64,000 bases of DNA from contig CAVXZB010000019.1 in the NCBI GenBank assembly GCA_963765895.1, positions 224,001 to 288,000 on the forward strand, written 5' to 3'. The position numbers and the translations under genes were made by a program. Numbering within the stretch: the stretch's first letter is position 1; every line of letters begins with the position of its first letter. This DNA comes from an uncultured Nitrososphaeraceae archaeon. Lineage in GTDB: Archaea > Thermoproteota > Nitrososphaeria > Nitrososphaerales > Nitrososphaeraceae. The notes beneath the pieces are model-generated. The model saw only the letters and a program-made list of their open reading frames with translations. It had not been told where the DNA came from and made no database searches. Below are positions 15,384 through 28,425 of this stretch, in pieces.

Positions 15384-16209
15384 TTAGATGGCTGTTGTGC
15401 ATATTGTCGCCTGACTATCTGCTACTCGGATGGAAGTCCCATTTGTGGCTCTTACTATCAATGTACCGTCAAGATCAATATCCAGTACACGACCTTCAAA
15501 GCACGTATGATCCTTGTTCACAACGCGGACATATTTATTAAATGTCTCACATCTAACTTTCCAATCATTTAGAACCGATAGTTCATCGGTACTGAAGTTG
15601 TTCAAGGTAATAATCTAATTTTTGTAAGGTTTGCACTATAAGGCCTCCGCAATCTATATCTCTCCCAGAAAGTTCTTGCCTCAAAGACGTAATCTCGTAG
15701 GCAGCCCCTATAGTTTTATTGATCAAGTGTAACGATGTGTTGTCAAGGTCTGAGTTTATTCCGATTCCAAATACTAGATACTTTAATACCTCTTTTTCAG
15801 CTCCGATCGAGATCAAGATACCAGAAACCTTCTTTGAATTTATGACTATGTCATTTGGCCATTTTATCTTTGATTCCAATCCAGTTTCGACTCGGATAGC
15901 CTCGCATACCGATAGTGATGCAACAGAAGATAGAAACGATGCCTTGTTCACTGAGATGCGCGGTCGAAGTATTAATGAAAGCCAGATTCCGCCTTTGGGA
16001 GATATCCATCTTTTACCGTCTCTCCCCTTCCCTTCGCTCTGTTCATTTGCAATGATTAATGTTCTCTCCAGTTTCGAATTTGTTTCTGCGAGAGATATTG
16101 CTATGTCTTGTGTCGATTCGGCTTTGTCATAAAAAAATATATTTTTGCATATAAAGTTCTGATCTGTCGTTGAGAGGAACCTCAAAATGTTACAATATTT
16201 ACTATTCAT
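15384..16209 (-). CDS. birA: Biotin--protein ligase, no N-terminal HTH (apparent frameshift near 15605)
   Basis: STQ, GKGRDGKRWISP, KWPND, KVSGIL, GIGIN; C-terminal SH3-like GRVLDIDLDGTLIV in the next frame. Confidence 0.88.
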
Positions 16210-17982: not shown

Positions 17983-19321
17983 TTATGCCCTGCAAGGGGG
18001 ATTGGCGAACCTATTGTTCGAATTTAGATGGTAATCCACAATGAGCTGCGGGTCCTTCTGTCTCCCTGTAAGAATCCCTACTACAACATCATCTTTTTTT
18101 ATCACTTCTTTTTGTCTAAGCTTTTTAACTGCCGCAGGTACTGCACCTGATGCCATTTCACAATCGAAGCCATTCAGACCTACAACCGACATACCGTCTG
18201 CCATCTCCTTATCATTTACTTGAACAACTAAGCCATTCGTAAAATCTAATGCTCGAAGTGCTTTTATAATATTGGCAGGCTTACCTATCTGAATTGCAGT
18301 GGCCTGAGTCTTTGGAACTTTCCCTTTCGCATCATTGAACTCATAGTATCGATTTATCATTGTCAAGTCCGGTCTTCCATTGTTCCAGGAAAGATTTTTC
18401 CCCTCGAAAACCCCATTTACTAATTCGTAAAAAGTATTAGCTCCTTGAGAATTGACAACCACTAATCGAGGGATTTTTTTTATCCAGCCCCATTCGTATA
18501 ACTCCATGAGACACTTACCACAGCTAGCAGTATTACCTAGAGCACCTCCAGGATAAAATATCCAGTCTGGAGGAGACCAGTCAAAACTTTCCAATGCTCT
18601 ATAAATCATAGTCTTTTGGCCCTCAATTCGAAATGGATTGACAGAATTTACTGTGTATCCATCCATTCTCTCGGGCTGCTTTCAGCGAGGTAGAGAGTGC
18701 GACATCAAAATTTCCATTAACTTCGATCACTTGAGCTCCAAACTGAAATGCCTGACCTAGCTTACCCGGTGCAACCTCTCCCTTCGGAATATATACACTA
18801 CATCCAATCCTCTCATTAGCGGCATACATCGCAGCGGATGCAGAGGTATTCCCAGTTGATGCGCAAATTAGGTTTTTAATCTTCAACATTTTGGCATGCG
18901 TGACCGCTGTAGACATCCCATTATCCTTGAATGATCCGCTCGGATTATACCCTTCCGGCTGCAATAAAAGAGAGTCTGCATTAATATTGGCATATTCAGC
19001 CACTTTGGTCATCCTATAGGGCTTAGAAAGCCGACCCTCTGATCCGTCAAGGGACACAAGATACGAAGCGCATTGTGCAAAGTCTTCACAATCTATGTTT
19101 ACAAAATTTATGAGATCTCGGAATCTCCACACTCCACTTTCGTTATAAATATTTCCTCCATGATCTCTCCTCTCATAAAATCTATCAATGAGTTCTCGCT
19201 TTGGTGGATTATGATATTGGACATCTAACAAATACCCACATGTACATAAATAATTACCAGTGGAGATATCAAATGTCAGTCCACAATCCGGATTAATGCA
19301 TTTTTTATTGGCTGTCTGCAT
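17983..19321 (-). CDS. thrC: Threonine synthase (apparent frameshift near 18667)
   Basis: N-terminal Zn ribbon, PLP motif NPSGSFKD, ASTGNTSAS, NSVNPFRIEGQKT, PGGALGN, ATAIQIG. Confidence 0.9.
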
Positions 19322-19789: not shown

Positions 19790-20093
19790 CTTAATATTTT
19801 GCTCTATCATCCTTTTTATAACTTCGATTTTGTATATTAAATACTTGCCGAATTACCAGAACACCTATTTAAGGATATAAACCCTTTGATCATGAAAGTA
19901 TTTGCAATTAACTATATTTCTAACTCCGTCCTTGATTATGGCCATCGAGAATGAAGACATCGTTAAATATCATCCACTTTTTCTTATTATACTAATGTCA
20001 GGAATAATATTACACGTTGTCGTTCTATTTTGTCTAATGACCTTTTATGTATAGCCTGAAGACGTAGAGAAAGAGGGCGGTGCGATATATAGA

Positions 20094-20429
20094 TTGAAGA
20101 ATCGTTCAGATATAGAAGTTATGGCTTCAATTTTGCGGTCTGCTACAAAGAGCTGGGAATATAAAACTACAATAATGAATAATGCTGTAGTATCGCATTC
20201 TCAATTAATCAGATATCTAGCAATAGCCGTAGAAAAAGAGTTAATGGAATATTCAGAAACCACGGGCCTTTACAGGACAACTGCAGCAGGCGTAAAATAT
20301 TTGGCTAAATACGAACAGCTGCTAGTCTTATTACCTACGATACCTGAGCTTCCAGACTTGGATAACGTTCCGGACGCATCAAAACAGGATCATCTAAATG
20401 AACCCATAAAGGATCGTCTCCTATCCTGA
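20094..20429 (+). CDS. Winged-helix transcriptional regulator (archaeal HTH_45-like)
   Basis: RSDIEVMASIL...KTTIM...SHSQLIRYL...YRTTAAGVKYL pattern. Confidence 0.8.
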   Translation: MKNRSDIEVMASILRSATKSWEYKTTIMNNAVVSHSQLIRYLAIAVEKELMEYSETTGLYRTTAAGVKYLAKYEQLLVLLPTIPELPDLDNVPDASKQDHLNEPIKDRLLS

Positions 20430-20555
20430 TCACATATTCGACTTAGAGTAGATTAGTCAATTTTACACAAGTACTCGTCTCATATACTGTTGAATAGCTT
20501 TGGTAATAATTGAAGAGATCATTACGGTACATCAAACACTTAAATAATAAAGTAC

Positions 20556-21544
20556 ATGCCTATTCAAGACAAAGTGATTAAAAATAAACTTCAGATATGT
20601 ACAGAGCTGAAAGCGCTCTTGATGGAAAGCATAGCTCGTAATTATTCAGATAATTTGTTACTTTCTGGAGGACTCGATAGCAGTATTATCTCGTCCATAT
20701 CGCATCCGAAGAAGACGATCACAGTTGCCTCATCGATTAGAGCACCGGACCTGCGTTATGCAAGACTAATAGCTCACAAATTTAGTAAAAAGCATAACGA
20801 ATTAATACTTCCCTTAAAAGAATTATTTCGAGTTATAGAAAATGTTATTTATATCCTCAAAACTTTTGACCCTATTGAGATAAGGAATTCTAGTGTGGCG
20901 TTTGCAGCAATCGATCTGGTAAGGAAAGAGGGAGATAGAAGCATAATGACCGGTGACGGAGCTGACGAACTATTTGCAGGCTATAACTATTTGTTAAGGT
21001 ACTTTGACGACCATACTAGGCTAGATGACGAACTTGCTAGACTCTGGAATTTGATGAAGCTTCTCATCAGTTAAAATAGGAAGGAAGTTGGGAATAATGG
21101 TCTTCGCTCCTTTTCTAGATAAACAGTTCATGCGATTTGCTAAATCAGTTGATGTTGAGACAAAGGTAGGAGTACGAAATGGCAAGAAATGGGGAAAATT
21201 TATTTTGAGAGAATGTTTCGAGTCTGACCTTGGGGCGCTTGTAGTCTGGAGAAGAAAATATGCCCAAGAGGAAGGATCAGGATTTACGTCAGTAAGAAAT
21301 ATCTTATTACAAGGATACAAGTACGACACGTTAGCTGAACAGAGAGAGCGGACGCAATCCAGGGGTCAGAATTAGGGACATGGAACATCTATACTATTTT
21401 CATATCTACCGAAAGTATTTTCCACTACCAATTGAAGAGGCTTGTGTCGGCGAAAGATGTCCTGATTGCTGTGGTTGTCTTACCGAAAATTCGAATTATT
21501 GTCATACATGTGGATGTTATCCTACGAAGATCCCATTGAAATGA
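20556..21544 (+). CDS. Asparagine-synthase C-terminal (PP-loop) domain protein with C-terminal Zn ribbon (two apparent frameshifts, near 21057 and 21360)
   Basis: LSGGLDSS, TGDGADELFAGY, APFLD, GKFILRECF, WRRKYAQEEGSG; last frame reads IRDMEHLYY...CPDC...CHTCGCYP*. Confidence 0.8.
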
Positions 21545-21920
21545 CATTCTGAACCTCTATCATCATTATACTAAGATTGCCAGTCTTAGATTTATTGCGA
21601 CTACGAAAAAATAAATTGTTGAAAGCAATCAATTAAGTTCTGTTCGATGGAACTAAAGTGGTTCCATCTGATAAAATCTACAATCAGAGCGCAGCCATAA
21701 CTGATATATTTAAAATTCATCCTTGTTCGGAGTCGAGCACATACTTTGATTTCCATCATAGTCTAGGGTAAAGATTTAAGTAGAATTTATCAGAATTAGG
21801 AAATATCAACTTTTATGAAAGCGACAGCAGAAAATATGGCTTTCATTGCTCCACAATAATTGGATGTCCAATGATTAGACACGATAGCGTAGACAAGACT
21901 CTGATTGCCCTTGTGTGGGC

Positions 21921-22121
21921 TTAGTTCTTGTTTTTCTTTGATTTGCCTTCTGTTAAAGATATGTGTTTTATTGTCTTCTTAATTCTCGATATTGTAGGAT
22001 AGCTGTAGCCCATACGTCGATAATTACGGATCATAGTTTTCCAATTTGAAAGCCTCCAGGCAGCCTGCTCTGATGTTAATAGCATAGTTTCTCTTTTCAC
22101 CTTGCTTTTTCTTCCAGGCAT
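21921..22121 (-). CDS. Small basic hypothetical protein
   Basis: 66 aa from ATG 22121: MPGRKSKVKRETMLLTSEQAAWRLSNWKTMIRNYRRMGYSYPTISRIKK; Lys/Arg-rich. Confidence 0.65.
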   Translation of the reverse strand: MPGRKSKVKRETMLLTSEQAAWRLSNWKTMIRNYRRMGYSYPTISRIKKTIKHISLTEGKSKKNKN

Positions 22122-22423
22122 CAGATATCCACCAGACTGGGCTTTGACTCGATGATATGAAAACTTTAGTCCAAATATTATCATATCAGTTGTAAGCGAG
22201 CTAAAATAGAACCCAAGTTCTTTCCCCTGTTGCTCCGTGGCTCTTATCTTGTAGATATATTGTTTCAACAATTTGATACGCGAGTTGCTATGTTTAATAT
22301 CTTTCTAAATCCGAGTTCTGAAAGATTTCCTCCGCCTCCTGGACCACGAAAAAATAAAGATTATGTAGACACAAGACCTCATGAGTAACAATTCCGGATT
22401 CAAAGGATTCTGATTCGAACCAA

Positions 22424-23638
22424 CTATATAATATTGAGTCTCTTACCGATAGTTTCAATTTTTTCTAAGGCGATTTTTAATTGTTTTAATTGCAATGAGG
22501 TTGTGATTGATGCCCTTAGCCTTGCTTTGCCCAGTGGGACGGTAGGGTAACGTACTGGCTGCATAAAAATACCGTCTGAAAGGAGAGCCTTTGAGAACTG
22601 CATGGTCAGTTTCTCATCGCCTATAATAAGTGGAATAATTTGGCTTCTGAATCTGGATCTACAACTCTTAGCATTGAAACCATTATGCTCTATCTTTGAA
22701 GAAAAAAAGGTAACATTCCTCTTTAGTTGTTCTTGCAAATTACCCTTGGTCGCTATTGGAATAGCTGCCAATGCAGAAGAACACAGATGGGAAGGTAGCC
22801 CAGAGGAGTACATAAATGACCGTGATCTATTTATTAATAATTCTATTATCTGCTCCGAGGCGGCAACGTAACCCCCAAAACATCCTAAGGCCTTACTTAA
22901 ACTGCTAATATATACATCAACTAAATGTCGTCTCTCTAACGCCACTCCGAATTCAGGGACTTGATCATAAATAAAATCGCCGTGTGAATCATCAACTATA
23001 GTTATAACGTTGTGACGAAGCGCAATATTATGAATCTCCTGTAGGTCAGAACGATCGCCATCCATACTAAAAATAGTTTCTGTCAAAATTATCTTTCTAT
23101 CTGACTTCCCCTTTCGAATAATCTGTTCAAGATGCTCCAGATCGTTATGTTTGAAAATTTCAATTCGAGCCCCGCTAAGCTTGCATCCATCTATTAAACT
23201 AGCATGATTATACTCGTCACTATAAATTGTTGTAAATTTATTTGCTAGGGTTGATATAACGCCAATATTTGCCATGTAACCACTTGGATAAATCAATGCT
23301 CTATCTGTCTTGCGATGGTCAGAAAGCTTCTCTTCAAGTTGCATTAACTCGTTACTATTTCCTGCTAGTAGTCTAGAACTACATTGTGATATTTGATTCA
23401 AATTTTCGATGGTCATCTTCAATACCGTTCTATTTTGAGATAACCCAAGATAGTCGTTAGAGCATAGGTTTATGCTCTCCACTCCGTTAACCAGAACAAT
23501 TGTTGTATTCTTATTGGTGGATACTAGATTGAGCCTTCGATACAAATTTGCTTTATTTAGACGACATAATTCGTCTTTCACAAAACTGAATTTGTCATGC
23601 TTAGGTCTTTTTCGCCTTAAACTATGCCTTAAGACCAA
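22424..23638 (-). CDS. bioF: 8-amino-7-oxononanoate synthase
   Basis: SNDYLGL, SRLLAG, NHASLIDG, FSMDGD, DDSH, SLSKALG (PLP Lys), PTVP. Confidence 0.94.
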   Translation of the reverse strand: MVLRHSLRRKRPKHDKFSFVKDELCRLNKANLYRRLNLVSTNKNTTIVLVNGVESINLCSNDYLGLSQNRTVLKMTIENLNQISQCSSRLLAGNSNELMQLEEKLSDHRKTDRALIYPSGYMANIGVISTLANKFTTIYSDEYNHASLIDGCKLSGARIEIFKHNDLEHLEQIIRKGKSDRKIILTETIFSMDGDRSDLQEIHNIALRHNVITIVDDSHGDFIYDQVPEFGVALERRHLVDVYISSLSKALGCFGGYVAASEQIIELLINRSRSFMYSSGLPSHLCSSALAAIPIATKGNLQEQLKRNVTFFSSKIEHNGFNAKSCRSRFRSQIIPLIIGDEKLTMQFSKALLSDGIFMQPVRYPTVPLGKARLRASITTSLQLKQLKIALEKIETIGKRLNII

Positions 23639-24608
23639 TCTCCCTAATCATTGCAATATCCTTTGCTGCACTGTTCCCATCTGTAGTCAAGTATCCTCCA
23701 GTTATTACGCCATTTGCACCGGCCTTTAGCGCGGTTTTCTCTTCATCTTTAAGGTTTACTTCTCTTCCACCGGCAATTTTTATAATCCCTCTTGGAATAA
23801 TGAATCGCCAGACAGCAATAGTTCTGATAGCGTCTATTGGATCCATTTTTGCTTGGCTTGCTAATGGCGTGCCAACTCTTCCCATTAGAATATTAAGCGG
23901 AATCTCATCGGGTTCAAGAGATTTGATGGAAAACGCAAGTTCTATCCTTTGTTTTGTGTTTTCACCCATGCCTATAATTCCGCCGCAGCATAATTCAAGA
24001 CCCTCTTCCTTTACTATTTTGGCGGTAAAGAACCTATCGCGAAATTCATGAGTTTTACAAATATTGGAAAAATAGCTCTCAGAGGTCTCAAGATTATGGT
24101 TGTATCTTTTCACCCCTACTTTTTTAAGTCTTCTTGCCTGTTCTCTGGAAATGGAGCCCAACGACGCGTTGACGTCTATTTCTAGACTTTTCTTAATTTC
24201 AATGATCGTTTCGCAGATTCTTTCGAAATCCTTATCTGGAGGTGATTTATAGGCACATACTAGACAAAAACTTTGGGAGCCCGATTCCTTAGCTTCTTTT
24301 GCTCTTTCTAAGATCAAATCCATAGGCAAGAGGGGATAAGTCCTTATCCCAGTTACTTTGTAATGTGAGGATTGCGCACAGAAATGACAATCCTCAGGAC
24401 AATTTCCAGATTTTGCATTTATCAAACTTTCTACATCTACTCGGTCTCCATTGAATGTTCGTGTAATAATGTTCGCACATTTGGTCAACGTATCTAGATC
24501 CCTTGTATATATCAGCCTCTCAGCCTCTTCGAAGCTCAAGTCTAATCCTGAAATTACCCTATTCATCGTATCGTAAATAAGCAAGGACTCTCTATCCATT
24601 TTCTTCAT
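23622..24608 (-). CDS. bioB: Biotin synthase (radical SAM)
   Basis: KSGNCPEDCHFCAQS, YNHNLET, GGIIGMGE, AGGRE, GYLTT. Confidence 0.96.
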   Translation of the reverse strand: MKKMDRESLLIYDTMNRVISGLDLSFEEAERLIYTRDLDTLTKCANIITRTFNGDRVDVESLINAKSGNCPEDCHFCAQSSHYKVTGIRTYPLLPMDLILERAKEAKESGSQSFCLVCAYKSPPDKDFERICETIIEIKKSLEIDVNASLGSISREQARRLKKVGVKRYNHNLETSESYFSNICKTHEFRDRFFTAKIVKEEGLELCCGGIIGMGENTKQRIELAFSIKSLEPDEIPLNILMGRVGTPLASQAKMDPIDAIRTIAVWRFIIPRGIIKIAGGREVNLKDEEKTALKAGANGVITGGYLTTDGNSAAKDIAMIREIGLKA

Positions 24609-24859
24609 GCAGGGAAACCGTACGATATATACTTATCTACTATACAAAATAGAGTCTAGTAAATGTAAAGCGAAAGAATTGGTTAGAAGCAAGACCGGTA
24701 GATTATTTCAAGATCGGGATTATTTTGCAATTATTATTTCTTGCCAATTTTTCCCGCGTTAGATATGTATCAATATTTCAAAATCCAAATGTCAAAGGCT
24801 GGCTTTATACATCTGAAATTAACGATCTAGGGCTAGATAAAACATGAACGTTGGAGAAA

Positions 24860-25001
24860 GTATAAAACGAAATCCGGTAAGTTGATCGATCTGGTCGTTA
24901 GACTAAATATGGACCCATTGATATACCGACCAAATAATAGGACCATTTTTATACCCAATACAGCTGGGTATAATTTTATCAAAATGACCCCTTTTTAGAC
25001 T
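24860..25001. repeat. Cluster of imperfect direct and inverted repeats, res-site-like, upstream of the resolvase
   Basis: GACCCATTGATATAC, GACCATTTTTATAC and GACCCCTTTTTAGAC direct repeats; 9-bp inverted repeat TTATACCCA(24949-57)/TGGGTATAA(24965-73); inverted GTATAAAA at 24860. Confidence 0.55.
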
Positions 25002-25058
25002 ATAAATCATATTCAGTTGACACCCGCCTTATTATCTATCAAGAATAAACCTGCTACA

Positions 25059-25659
25059 ATGAAGTTTGCGGTAGCATACGTTAGGGTCAGTACAGGGGAG
25101 CAAACCGGTACTCAACCAACGATTAGCCATTGATAGATGGGCGTTAGAGCATGGTTATCATGTTATCTATTACTTTGAGGATTCAGCAATCAGCGGAAAA
25201 ATACCTGCGATCCTGAGGCAGGCATTTAAAGACATGTTAGAATTATTGAAACAAGACAGAGTTGACGCCGTATTGGTTTATGAACTATCAAGAGTTGGTA
25301 GGACATTCTGGGACACCCTTGACGCAATTAAAGCCATTGAACTATATGCTCCACTGATTTCTTGTTCTCCGAGAGAAACCTTTCTTCAGAGTACTGAGGC
25401 AAGTATTAGAAAGTTAATGCTAGGAATATTGACCTGGGTTGCAGAAAGAGAAAGAGAGATGTTGGTCCAAAGGACAAAGGATGGAATGACCAGGGCCAAG
25501 AATTCTGGAAAACTGATAGGAAGGCCCTCTAAGAAGCTTGACAAAGACAATCTAATAAGGCTATTGGCAAAACAAGTCCCCCGCACCGAAATAGCGAGGA
25601 ATCTGGGTGTTTGCAAGGCCACTTTATACAAGGAACTTAGAAAACACGAGATTAAATAG
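25059..25659 (+). CDS. Small serine recombinase (resolvase/invertase family) with C-terminal HTH (apparent frameshift near 25107)
   Basis: MKFAVAYVRVSTGEQT with catalytic Ser; then VLNQRLAI...EDSAISG, ELSRVGR, AEREREMLVQRTKDGM, GRP, HTH IARNLGVCKATLY; span is 600+1 nt. Confidence 0.9.
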
Positions 25660-25660
25660 G

Positions 25661-26995
25661 CTACGTAGACTTTTCGATTTTATTTACAAGGCTATATATT
25701 GTATCAAGCAGAAATTTTAGGTCTCGTCTTCCTATCGCTAATGGAGGGATTATTACTACTGTATTTCCCAAACTTCTTAGGAATACTCCCATATTAAGCG
25801 ATTCCCTGGCGATGTAAGAACTGATCGTAACTCCATTTCCTAATTTCAAAATGGGCTTTTTTGTTTTGCCGAGGTCTATGCCACCGAGTAAACCTTTTGA
25901 TCTTATATTCTCTGCAATTGGAAAATGCTTGATCTCGCGTAATCTTCGACTTATGTATACGCTGTTTTGTCTTATTTTCCGCAATAATTTATATTTTTTA
26001 TACATTCGGATATTAGCTATTGCTGCAGCGCAGCCTATAGGATGACCAGTAAAAGTATGCCCATGGTAAAGTTGTTTAGATTCTGTGTGTTTTCCCAAAA
26101 ACGAACTAAAAACTGAGTCATTGGTTAGGGTAACAGCCAACGGAGAATATCCACCAGTGAGGGCCTTCCCTAGGCACACGATATCCGGATAAGATTTTTG
26201 TTCCACATATTCTAGCATATTGCCTAATCTTCCGAACCCTGTGGCGATCTCATCAAGTATAAGCAAGACATCATATTTTCTACACAATTCTTCTATCTTT
26301 TTTTGATAATATCTTGGGTAGATCGACACGCCACCTGCTATCTGAGCACCGCTTTCCATGACGAGAGCGCAGCAAGCAGAGCTATTATTCGCTAAAATGG
26401 CTTCGGTTTTTTCAAGACAGAGATTCTCGTAATCTTGGCAATCGCTATAAGCCGATCTGCAAACCGGCGAAGGGATTTTGATTGCTCTCCGGAGCAGAGG
26501 TAAGTATGGCGCAAAATACTTTGGAAGATAACCCAAGCTCATTGCTCCTATTGTATCACCATGATATCCATTTTCCATAGAAATGAATTTAGTTTTACCT
26601 TCTTTTCCTCTGTTTTTCCAGTATTGCACAGCCATCTTCATAGCGACTTCTATTGCTGTTGATCCATTGTCTGAATAGAAAACATGACTCATTCCTTTCG
26701 CTAGACGGATAAGCATTTCCGCCAGCTCAGATGAGGGAGCGCTAGCCAAACCGAATAGTGTAGAATGTTGAATTGTTTGAATCTGTCTGATCATGGCCCT
26801 CGTTATCTCATTATTCCCATGTCCCCAGACATTACACCACATACTAGCAATCCCGTCCAGAAATCTCCTGCCGTGTTCATCAATTAGGTAGAAGCCATCG
26901 CCACGTACAATTACCGGCCTAATTGAATTGCCCCATTCTTGCATTTGCGTGAATGGATGCCAAACATACTTCCTATCAGCAAACGATAAGTTCAA
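25661..26995 (-). CDS. bioA: Adenosylmethionine--8-amino-7-oxononanoate aminotransferase
   Basis: VWHPFTQM, DGIASMWCNVWGH, SDNGSTAIEVAMKMA, YHGDT, DEIATGFGR, GKALTGG, HGHTFTG. Confidence 0.96.
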   Translation of the reverse strand: MNLSFADRKYVWHPFTQMQEWGNSIRPVIVRGDGFYLIDEHGRRFLDGIASMWCNVWGHGNNEITRAMIRQIQTIQHSTLFGLASAPSSELAEMLIRLAKGMSHVFYSDNGSTAIEVAMKMAVQYWKNRGKEGKTKFISMENGYHGDTIGAMSLGYLPKYFAPYLPLLRRAIKIPSPVCRSAYSDCQDYENLCLEKTEAILANNSSACCALVMESGAQIAGGVSIYPRYYQKKIEELCRKYDVLLILDEIATGFGRLGNMLEYVEQKSYPDIVCLGKALTGGYSPLAVTLTNDSVFSSFLGKHTESKQLYHGHTFTGHPIGCAAAIANIRMYKKYKLLRKIRQNSVYISRRLREIKHFPIAENIRSKGLLGGIDLGKTKKPILKLGNGVTISSYIARESLNMGVFLRSLGNTVVIIPPLAIGRRDLKFLLDTIYSLVNKIEKST

Positions 26996-27035
26996 CTAAG
27001 ATAAAAAGAACCCTTCATCTATTATTACTATTCTA

Positions 27036-27738
27036 ATGCGTGGATTATTTGTGACTGGAACAGATACAGGAATAGGAAAAACCACAATTTCTACGGGTTT
27101 AATCTGGTCCTTGCGCAATCAAAATATTGATGTTGGAGTAATGAAGCCGTTTGCTGCTGCTGAAAAGACTTTCTCTCGCAGTTACAAATCTGAAGATACT
27201 TACAGATTAGCAATGGCTGCTGGATCAGAATCTACTGATAAACAAATCAATCCATTTTTTTATAAGGTACCAGCATCACCTCTTGTTGCTTCTAGAATAA
27301 CGCATCAAAAAATACCGGCCTTGAAAAATGTCGTAAGGCTCGTGTTAGATGAATCCAAAAAATACAAATATATGATTATTGAAGGCATCGGCGGAATTAT
27401 GGTTCCGATATCTAGGACCTATACCATTGCAGACTTTGCAAGGTATCTTGGTTTTCCTATAGTCGTTGTAGCCAGTGCTAGGCTGGGTAGTTTAAATCAC
27501 ATATTGCTTACATTAGAGGCTTGTTCTAATCTTCATTTGGATGTGGTTGCGATAGTTATCAATCGAATGCCAAAAAGGCCGAGCAAGTCTCAAAGGCTAG
27601 TTGCAAGTACCCGTACGTCAGCTTACCGGTGTAAGAACAATTTTTTCCATCCCGGAATTTCGGAAGCAGCCAGAGCCGGTTTCGATAGGATCTATACTCG
27701 ATGACAAGTGGCAAATTTCGGACTCGCTTCGGCTCTGA
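27036..27738 (+). CDS. bioD: Dethiobiotin synthase (probable frameshift near 27611 affecting the C-terminus)
   Basis: FVTGTDTGIGKT, MKP, IEGIGG, LGSLNH; removing one C gives a more plausible tail VRQLTGVRTIFSIPE...* ending at 27738. Confidence 0.9.
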
Positions 27739-27993
27739 ATTCCTTCTTCAGCTGTACCAACTTCAGACTTTTAGTGGAACGACTTCTGAAAACTAATTCA
27801 AGACGATTCAAAGACTCCACTTTCATACTTTTTGGATACCATCCAATTGAATTTGTGAATTGGTCCTCCGTCATCATAAACAATTAATGTTTAGTGTTTA
27901 CTACTAGACCTTGTTATAGCCTATCAACAATATTAAAAGTAATTAATACTCATTATAATAGATTTATAAAATCTTGTTGTATACTGCTTAATT

Positions 27994-28425
27994 ATGCTCA
28001 CGGTAAAGATCGGTACTAGTTTATTGCTAGTCTCGCTGGCGCTGTTGATAATTTATGGGGCTGACGTGATTGTGGCCATGTCTAAGAACGGACAAGATGG
28101 GCCTAAGAGTCCAAGAGGTTTCCTACCTTTAAATGATGCAGCAAGGGGAATTGCTTTTGGAGGTACAGCGGTTGTAATGTCTATTGTTGCATTTATAATA
28201 ACCAGAAAGACGCCTTCTCGCAACGTTGTAATATTGTTAATCATAAACGGTGGAGTAATTTTAGCTGGAATGTTTTCCATTATGGCTCAGGCTGCTCCAA
28301 CTCCAAATTCCGCCAAAACTATAGGATCGACAATCCTAATGGGCATACTTCTAATAGCCTTGGGTCTAGTAAAGTCACATTATGACAAAAGACATGTGGC
28401 GCAGAAGAGGGAGTATCTTCGGTAA
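27994..28425 (+). CDS. Hypothetical four-TM membrane protein
   Basis: 143 aa with four hydrophobic segments; TTTATAAA box about 25 nt upstream. Confidence 0.75.
   Translation: MLTVKIGTSLLLVSLALLIIYGADVIVAMSKNGQDGPKSPRGFLPLNDAARGIAFGGTAVVMSIVAFIITRKTPSRNVVILLIINGGVILAGMFSIMAQAAPTPNSAKTIGSTILMGILLIALGLVKSHYDKRHVAQKREYLR

Follow-up and report, generated by a model that had tools for sequence, protein, structure and literature searches.

A serine recombinase gene with a res-like upstream block, fixed between bioB and bioA in the Nitrososphaeraceae: a candidate module for chromosome dimer resolution

Among plasmid serine recombinases, ParA of RK2, Sin and beta act at adjacent res sites made of several subsites and convert replicon dimers into monomers, and the accessory sites of the Tn3 and gamma-delta resolvases are known to provide a topological filter that allows resolution only. 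The chromosome dimer-resolution systems described in the relevant part of PMC5357621 all use tyrosine recombinases; according to the same part, the recombinase gene is linked to its own site in XerS/difSL, XerH/difH and some XerA/dif pairs, and archaeal dif sites lie 122-180 degrees from oriC. Serine recombinases of archaea have been seen in transposons and ‘were never fully investigated’ (PMC8371274), and a passage of Cortez et al. 2010 (PMC2958812) suggests that Thaumarchaea, which are without xerA, ‘may have recruited another’ recombinase. Here we describe a small serine recombinase gene and the ~200 bp of conserved sites upstream of it, located in the biotin (bio) cluster of an uncultured Nitrososphaeraceae archaeon, between bioB and bioA. 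They lie in a stretch of 64,000 nucleotides (contig CAVXZB010000019.1, positions 224,001 to 288,000), hereafter the window, whose first letter is position 1. The reading that best accommodates the comparative data, to which we assign a probability of about 0.45, is that gene and block form a resolvase/res module that would resolve chromosome dimers. Full-text literature searches returned no description of this gene or of a serine recombinase acting as chromosome dimer resolvase; the supplementary mobilome tables of PMC6563490 (IS and iMGE lists for Nitrososphaera genomes), which lay outside these searches, might list the gene.

By its domains and residues the protein is a small serine recombinase of the resolvase/invertase group, and strand exchange is predicted for it. 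The gene (25059..25659, + strand) has 199 codons when one base within 25105-25108 is skipped, with an N-terminal catalytic domain carrying YVRVST and a C-terminal HTH_7 domain. In the unaltered frame, the window reads MKFAVAYVRVSTGEQT from the ATG at 25059 to a TGA stop at 25131, and the +1 frame is open over 25075-25659, its stop codon being the TAG at 25657-25659. In a DNA alignment with three same-genus orthologues, a single surplus base stands in the ACCGG of the window (25105-25108); skipping it yields the 199 codons and letters identical to those of the same-genus orthologues across the break. The analyses used the +1-frame product (P0001) and intact orthologues. The former matches PF00239 Resolvase (1.7e-23, 83.7 bits, cut-off 23.3) and, C-terminal to it, PF02796 HTH_7 (5.5e-6, 26.8 bits, cut-off 23.8), so that Pfam and the orthologue alignment agree with the preliminary description of this locus, which had proposed a serine recombinase of ~199 residues with a helix-turn-helix (HTH), full length minus one base. 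Domain order and length are those of the Tn3 and gamma-delta resolvases, with full-length matches to 1GDT, 1ZR4 and 5CY1 (E ~1e-13).

Residue numbering was transferred to the family via an HMMER alignment to gamma-delta resolvase. Across 31 orthologues 71 columns are invariant, among them the equivalents of Y6, R8, S10, Q14, Q19, D36, S39, R45, D59, R68, R71, E118, R119 and R125, and the GRP arm motif is invariant likewise. The family departs from the Tn3 and gamma-delta resolvases at two positions, with Ser at D67 and Gln at E124; E124Q is an activating change. Since Ser at the D67 position is common to a wider, non-syntenic clade of metagenomic relatives (36-56% identity), we regard it as a trait of that clade and not as a sign of decay. 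In the part of the study by Olorunniji and Stark that bears on these residues (PMC2794168), both positions are reported as non-essential; Y6, R8, S10, D36, R68 and R71 are the key catalytic residues, followed by Q14, Q19 and R45. All nine, that is, the essential Tyr/Arg/Asp/Gln set and the nucleophilic Ser, are kept in the 31 orthologues, as in the resolvases themselves, and the protein has every appearance of being catalytically active, to judge from its residues. Selection on the gene is strong: over 19 same-genus pairs, the ratio of non-synonymous to synonymous substitution rates (dN/dS) has a median of 0.066 (range 0.022-0.089), compared with 0.069 for bioB, 0.105 for bioA and 0.109 for bioF. 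For the part of the window copy after the break, dN/dS against the closest relative is 0.082, without relaxation. The estimate that the preliminary description had asked for thus comes to ~0.07 and indicates purifying selection.

The ~200 bp 5' of the recombinase start are conserved between genera and hold three dyad-like elements at near-fixed spacing, each of which is predicted to bind a dimer. Farthest from the gene lies P, a 13-bp palindrome (24866..24878, no strand assigned; AACGAAATCCGGT in the window, aaCGAatTTCGt as family consensus) at a fixed distance to R1, with C7, G8, C14 and G15 invariant in 29 sequences. R1 (24901..24926, + strand), the candidate crossover site, is a 26-bp dyad of 12-bp arms around a 2-bp AC centre at 24913-24914 (GTnTAAAAAAGG-AC-CCnTTTTTAnAC); its arms show 7.9/12 matches with the centre at AC vs 2.0-4.5 with the centre shifted by 1-6 bp. 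R2 (24928..24955, +) abuts R1 and is a dyad-like candidate accessory site with a 3-bp centre (consensus GTCTAAAAAATAG.ACC.TTTTTTTAC). After a variable stretch of ~20-45 bp comes the third site, R3 (24975..25000, +), which has a conserved right arm, CC.TTTTTgAAC (24987-25000), an A-rich left arm and a variable spacer, and lies ~60 bp from the start codon. A TTGACA hexamer (25017-25022) and an A/T-rich TATA-like box (25029-25036) follow on the same strand (25017..25036; conserved columns TTGACaa and tTAa), the box ~27 bp before the ATG; together they are probably the promoter of a leaderless recombinase mRNA. The 97-nt segment P-R1-R2 aligns almost without indels and with near-invariant spacing across 29 sequences, which represent 15 genera.

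At the level of its letters, this block is arranged like a resolvase res site. A 12-2-12 dyad such as R1 has the geometry for the 2-bp staggered cut of serine recombinases. We take the order R1-R2-R3 to resemble that of a Tn3-type res, in which the crossover-like site is farthest from the gene and accessory-like sites run into the promoter; as in the res sites of Tn3 and gamma-delta, the dyads are dimer-sized, lie directly upstream of the gene and overlap the promoter. Unlike in those sites, R1 and R2 abut here and ~60 bp separate R2 from R3, so that the subsite spacings differ; there is an additional palindrome P, and the host is an archaeon. That serine recombinases cut with a 2-bp stagger is also stated in the part of PMC5357621 cited above. 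An RNA-based reading of the block was dropped, an Rfam scan of 24400-25200 giving no match at E <= 1. In two complete genomes of genus g2 (G007 and G036; loci L064 and L065), a ~40-bp stretch is doubled within the 215 bp upstream of the recombinase start. It consists of an R2-like element, 27 bp and ATGAA, and the start codon marks the end of its second copy. Inside each genome the copies do not differ, between the two genomes they do, which suggests ongoing homogenisation; a third g2 genome, G070, has only a degenerate version.

The block appears to be unique in each chromosome. In the genome from which the window comes, nhmmer with the 215-bp block found one place, and a position-weight scan gave 27.3 bits for R1 vs 19.1 for the next best match and 31.7 vs 19.5 for R2, so no second R1 or R2 was detected there. 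A covariance model of P-R1-R2, based on sequence only, located the block in 113 of 121 family genomes and in 77 of the 81 high-quality ones (110/118 without the three unpublished genomes G062, G100 and G122); the eight genomes without it are 57-97% complete. Strong matches (E at most 6.5e-6) occur once per genome, with the exception of G030, which has a full and a partial copy on contigs C75 and C43. All further matches either have E > 0.003 or are R1 matching itself on the reverse strand of its own position. A single conserved site per chromosome across the clade is what dimer resolution would call for, and it disfavours an inversion switch with two full sites.

A programmed rearrangement, in which R1 would recombine with a cryptic partner site in a phase-variation-like manner, nevertheless has some points of contact with the locus. 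The 12-2-12 layout of R1 is that of the invertase sites hix and gix, an A-tract lies beside the core in its arms, presumably as in hix, and the Hin/Gin group shares the invariant GRP arm. The PDB matches to this group (4M6F, 3UJ3) are as good as those to the resolvases, with 1.3e-13 for Gin invertase and 1.1e-13 for gamma-delta resolvase, and the R2-like duplication in G007 and G036, with its copies identical within a genome and different between genomes, could also be counted here. So could G016, which has an inverted bioB, a displaced gene and a breakpoint close to R3. This rearrangement needs several breakpoints, however, and is therefore not a simple site-specific event. Unlike in the Hin and Gin systems, no second inverted site, recognisable invertible segment or enhancer was found at our locus; strong matches to the block are single per genome, the contig-split pair of G030 excepted, and no further R1 or R2 in the genome of the window scores above 19.5 bits. 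Contigs of four public runs over 20000-28000 showed no joints or inverted forms, which is a weak argument because contigs drop rare variants. All in all, we consider an invertase function very improbable.

Inheritance of the gene was followed in 60 relatives, comprising 36 other genomes of the family and 24 genomes from 19 other families of the order. Orthologues are present in 32 of the 36 (61-96% identity overall; 82-96% inside a genus, 61-74% between genera); the remaining four, in which none was matched, have a completeness of 72-90%. Each genome has one orthologue, G008 having in addition a weak 30% match, and the gene is likewise single-copy in the genome of the window. None of the 24 genomes of the other 19 families has an orthologue, the one match (29%) being unrelated and lying inside an open reading frame (ORF) of 640 aa. 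Copies in databases carry Nitrososphaeraceae names. The gene is followed by a convergent bioA within 130 bp in 27 of the 32 loci and preceded by a divergent bioB at 0.27-2.3 kb in 24; of the remaining loci, four have contig ends less than 600 bp upstream and four have no bioB there (L040, L041, L047, L055). In two outgroup families (L066, L068) the arrangement is bioD<>bioA-bioB-bioF, with bioA and bioB ~78 bp apart and no recombinase gene. Therefore, a cassette of ~0.9-1.05 kb entered this junction in the ancestor of the family.

Gene and ~200 bp upstream thus constitute one unit that entered the bioA-bioB junction in the Nitrososphaeraceae ancestor and has since been inherited mostly vertically. 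In the recombinase tree, 7 of 11 multi-member genera are recovered with strong support. No mobile-element genes were found in the variant loci L043, L044 and L055 or around the relocated gene in L040; the neighbours at these loci are thiolase, TFIIB, sorbosone dehydrogenase and unknowns. In G016, the unit is split: P-R1-R2 and a degenerate R3 lie between bioA and the inverted bioB (L069, G016:C1, 4747-4876), and another contig carries the gene together with the right R3 arm and the promoter, between sorbosone-dehydrogenase and TFIIB genes (L040, G016:C12). Block and gene are unlinked there, yet both are retained. The proposal that the resolvase is chromosomally fixed, or domesticated, and not a recent mobile insertion is strongly supported by the family-wide synteny, the near single copy, the purifying selection and the absence from sister families. 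The synteny comparison that the preliminary description had suggested shows the order bioB-recombinase-bioA to be usual in the family and absent in the two outgroup families; the absence from close relatives that would have spoken for a recent insertion is not observed, the family genomes being nearly all carriers.

Fixation as such could also befall a plasmid or transposon resolution cassette that was stranded without host function and was kept by inertia or because its removal disturbs bio expression. Gene and res-like site do resemble a plasmid or Tn3-type resolution module in their combined size of ~0.9-1.05 kb, and the nearest relatives outside the family are scattered metagenomic proteins, in clusters with generic ‘DNA invertase’ names. 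On the other hand, the dN/dS of ~0.07 is at or below that of the neighbouring biosynthetic genes, 71 protein columns are invariant, the non-coding block keeps near-fixed spacing over 15 genera, none of the 32 orthologues contains stops, and the unit survives relocation away from bioB. Inertia does not fit such low dN/dS, conserved columns and block, open frames and survival at the divergence seen within the family, and of the explanations weighed here this is the one we find hardest to credit.

The location in the bio cluster raises another option, namely, a domesticated repressor that would bind P and R1-R3 without recombination in vivo and control its own promoter and perhaps that of bioB-bioF. 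The genome contains only one protein of the BPL family, the BirA homologue at 15583-16209 of the window, which has 208 aa and consists of the ligase domain alone, without HTH, as the preliminary description had pointed out; in organisms with such a BirA, the recombinase would then be a biotin regulator. Most genomes have the gene within the bio cluster, R3 and TTGACA overlap with the promoter region of the recombinase, Tn3-type resolvases are known repressors at res, and D67 is replaced by Ser in all orthologues. Nevertheless, the residues essential for catalysis in the relevant part of PMC2794168 would be needless for a pure repressor and are invariant in the 31 orthologues, and the Ser at D67, being shared by the non-syntenic clade with 36-56% identity, is no mark of domestication.

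The geometry of the locus also argues against bioB-bioF as the target. The distance from the block to the recombinase start is kept, and that to bioB ranges from ~70 bp in genus g2 through 210-380 bp in most genera to >1 kb. In the window, the spacer from the bioB start to P (24609..24865, - strand), with a bioB TATA-like box next to 24609-24640, is conserved only inside the genus and lies outside the recombinase module. The block accompanies the gene where bioB sits elsewhere (L041, L047, L044), gene and block are also found in g8 and G018, where bioB is no longer their neighbour, and G016 retains both although they are unlinked. There is no R1- or R2-like site near other genes of the genome of the window, and the outgroups have the same bio cluster without the gene. 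The known classes of biotin-operon repressor, BirA class II, BioR and BioQ, have operators that hold a constant position in bio promoters and recur at other bio genes, and no further copies of the block were found. The suggestion of a bioB-bioF regulator in the preliminary description is therefore not borne out, since the block holds its distance to the recombinase start, not to bioB, and persists without a bioB neighbour; a repressor function in the wider sense appears unlikely to us. A 22-bp palindrome upstream of bioB, TTTCtAAAyTCGArTTTwGAAA, was considered as a bio operator and rejected as generic because copies stand in numerous unrelated intergenic regions as well as in outgroups. It is a widespread motif of ammonia oxidisers, found beside promoters of bioB, of a 116-aa ORF and of others (L042:1668 and 4565, L066:456, L035:2206), and was not found in the bioB upstream region of the window itself.

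What, then, lends real but indirect support to a function in chromosome dimer resolution is the res-like tripartite site, its single copy, its position and the lack of a canonical XerA. With the curated archaeal XerA model, none of the 61 genomes of the order scored above the cut-off (best 198.8 vs 220 bits), which 4 of 14 control genomes passed. A complementary pattern, with XerA where the resolvase is missing, was rejected, since all genomes of the order stay below the cut-off of the model. Tyrosine recombinases have a patchy, integrase-like distribution across the order and are numerous in the large soil genomes, with 21 matches in the genome of the window. The lone tyrosine recombinases of three small complete outgroup genomes were considered as a substitute and discarded, being patchy and, in one of two comparisons, not mutually orthologous.

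Six complete genomes, three each from genera g2 and g14, served to place the site relative to the orc1/cdc6 gene with the highest score (373-379 bits). The shorter arc from site to orc1 spans 0.397-0.487 genome lengths out of a maximum of 0.5, or 143-175 degrees, in all six (0.466 in G007, 0.397 in G036 and 0.447 in G070 of g2; 0.482 in G019, 0.473 in G102 and 0.487 in G130 of g14). For cumulative GC skew, 10-kb bins were used and the flanks taken were ±200 kb, or ±100 kb in G019; in six of six genomes the maximum is 0-3 bins (<=30 kb) away from the site: site and peak fall in bins 20.0 and 18 in G007, 20.1 and 18 in G036, 20.1 and 20 in G070, 10.1 and 9 in G019, 20.0 and 21 in G102, and 20.0 and 17 in G130. 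The sign of the skew flips across the site in all of them, from left to right +0.014 to -0.030 (G007), +0.025 to -0.032 (G036), +0.034 to -0.022 (G070), +0.014 to -0.015 (G019), +0.002 to -0.019 (G102) and +0.001 to -0.017 (G130). The orientation of long ORFs switches at the site in G070, G007 and G036 (Fisher p 0.005, 0.009 and 0.024), marginally so in G019 (0.06).

In its position and genetic arrangement, the module is comparable to Xer/dif modules, with one gene linked to a single, clade-conserved chromosomal site, here at a local skew summit 143-175 degrees from orc1. It differs in that Xer proteins are tyrosine recombinases acting at 28-31-bp sites with 6-11-bp spacers, and our protein is a serine recombinase with a predicted 2-bp core and accessory sites; Pfam places it among the serine recombinases, not with the tyrosine recombinase fold and the R-K-H-R-H/W-Y residues of the Xer family. 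By analogy, the functional resemblance would be greatest to those Xer modules in which the recombinase is linked to its site, realised with a recombinase from another superfamily. With respect to the plasmid multimer resolvases ParA of RK2, Sin and beta, the difference is that the replicon would be a chromosome and that the unit is fixed in an archaeal family.

Several observations weigh against dimer resolution or blunt the arguments for it. The other ammonia-oxidiser families of the order have neither XerA nor the recombinase gene; a dedicated resolvase is therefore not indispensable, or not universal, in the order. Two complete outgroup genomes, G044 and G048, have no such gene, and in them the distance between bioB and orc1 is 0.444 and 0.445 genome lengths. 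It is therefore probable that the cassette arrived in a bio cluster already close to the terminus, which confounds the argument from position. As the six complete genomes represent only two genera, they amount to one or two independent observations, and in G102 and G130 the skew is weak and the switch in ORF orientation non-significant (p 0.5 and 0.4). A rough null from the genome of the window, with 23 overlapping windows on two contigs, puts the peak within ±3 bins of the centre at a frequency of 0.22. In the 441-kb contig of the window itself, the GC-skew maximum is at ~130 kb (bin 13) and the site at 249 kb (bin 24.9), ~120 kb apart; only the ORF-orientation curve peaks near the site (bin 22 vs 24.9). 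In the g14 genomes G019, G102 and G130, additional orc1/cdc6 paralogues (209-212 bits) occur at a distance of 48-79 kb from the site; they could mark integrated elements or extra origins near the presumed terminus. As for the site, covariation between the two arms of R1 inside a genome does not go beyond the consensus (partner-shuffle p 0.30). The recombinase and bioB trees are in supported conflict in one case, G024 grouping with g13/g18 at 98/98; the longer flanks of the three loci of this group hold no mobile-element genes. Finally, all the evidence for dimer resolution is comparative. The preliminary description had proposed to compare the site with the replication terminus: a skew switch roughly opposite orc1 is seen in six of six complete genomes, and the contig of the window departs from it, with its peak ~120 kb off. 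Its suggestion of a chromosome dimer resolvase fares accordingly. The res-like site, present once per genome, the terminus position and the lack of a canonical XerA speak for it, and the outgroups rob the position of part of its force.

Somewhat more tentatively than for dimer resolution as such, it can be speculated that the Nitrososphaeraceae resolve dimers with a serine resolvase at a terminus-located res of three subsites, a topological filter taking the place of Xer and an FtsK-like director. Dimers of the enzyme would bind R1-R3, and through R3 the recombinase might repress its own promoter. Homologous recombination would fuse sister chromosomes into a dimer with two directly repeated copies of the site; the recombinase would then synapse the two copies and cut at the 2-bp AC centre of R1, yielding monomers. 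The accessory sites would confer a resolution-only filter. To our knowledge, archaea are without an FtsK-like director. A built-in filter would make such a director unnecessary and would explain directionality without FtsK. The location in the biotin cluster would then be a historical accident, the cassette having landed near the replication terminus.

On the - strand of the window, bioF (22424-23638) lies 3' of bioB (23622..24608; radical SAM and BATS domains), which is the divergent neighbour of the recombinase gene; bioA (25661..26995, -; Aminotran_3) is its convergent neighbour, and bioD (27036-27704, +) is divergent from bioA. The placement between bioB and bioA in the preliminary description, with a single nucleotide (25660) between the recombinase stop and bioA, agrees with these coordinates, and the transposase, TnpB and terminal inverted repeats that it had looked for in vain did not turn up here either: no transposase or TnpB gene was found near the recombinase gene in the window, and the repeat search gave no convincing terminal inverted repeats, all pairs being short or of low identity and the best one (26 nt, 73%) lying inside coding sequences. 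Unlike a Tn3 transposon, the unit has no tnpA and no terminal repeats, and it is chromosomal, single-copy and mostly vertically inherited. Beside bioF, an ORF of 116 aa without Pfam match (21921-22271, -) occurs across the family and in outgroups, with 45-97% identity.

We attribute the surplus base in the window copy to faulty assembly or to a private change of very recent date. Contigs from four public runs (X1, X2, X5 and X15) were compared with 20000-28000 of the window; X15 is an RNA library and does not cover 25107. None of the three DNA runs, soil metagenomes from three independent studies, has the base at 25107: each covers the place with one contig, and that contig lacks it (figures for the omission 8.28/8.28 in X1, 3.1/3.1 in X2 and 5.5/5.5 in X5). 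Moreover, the frames are open in all 32 orthologues from relatives; our reading follows from these two findings and from the unrelaxed dN/dS of 0.082. An asparagine-synthase gene that the relative G004 has in one frame is broken in the window (20556-21074 / 21088-21375) by a similar surplus of one base at 21057, and near 18640 the frame of a PALP enzyme is interrupted as well (17983-18666 / 18623-19321, overlapping over 18623-18666). As these two genes are split likewise, an indel-prone assembly is the likeliest origin of the base at 25107. A further single-base difference from the metagenome contigs is at 27610, near the end of bioD. A real frameshift, named in the preliminary description as grounds for abandoning its proposal, is thus not seen in near-identical populations, in three of three covering DNA runs. 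The metatranscriptome contigs of X15 span 25108-25670 and bioB but not 24470-25107; as contigs, they do not show transcription.

If dimer resolution proves to be the function of this module, it would be the first serine-recombinase equivalent of dif in any domain of life, and it would answer how Thaumarchaea without xerA handle chromosome dimers. The candidate is concrete. It comprises a single gene and ~200 bp of mapped site, within which a 2-bp crossover point is predicted, and it is conserved among abundant soil nitrifiers, in more than 100 of their genomes. Even if this reading fails, the locus clearly exemplifies a resolvase/res cassette fixed in a cellular lineage under strong selection, which is unusual for this class of enzymes.

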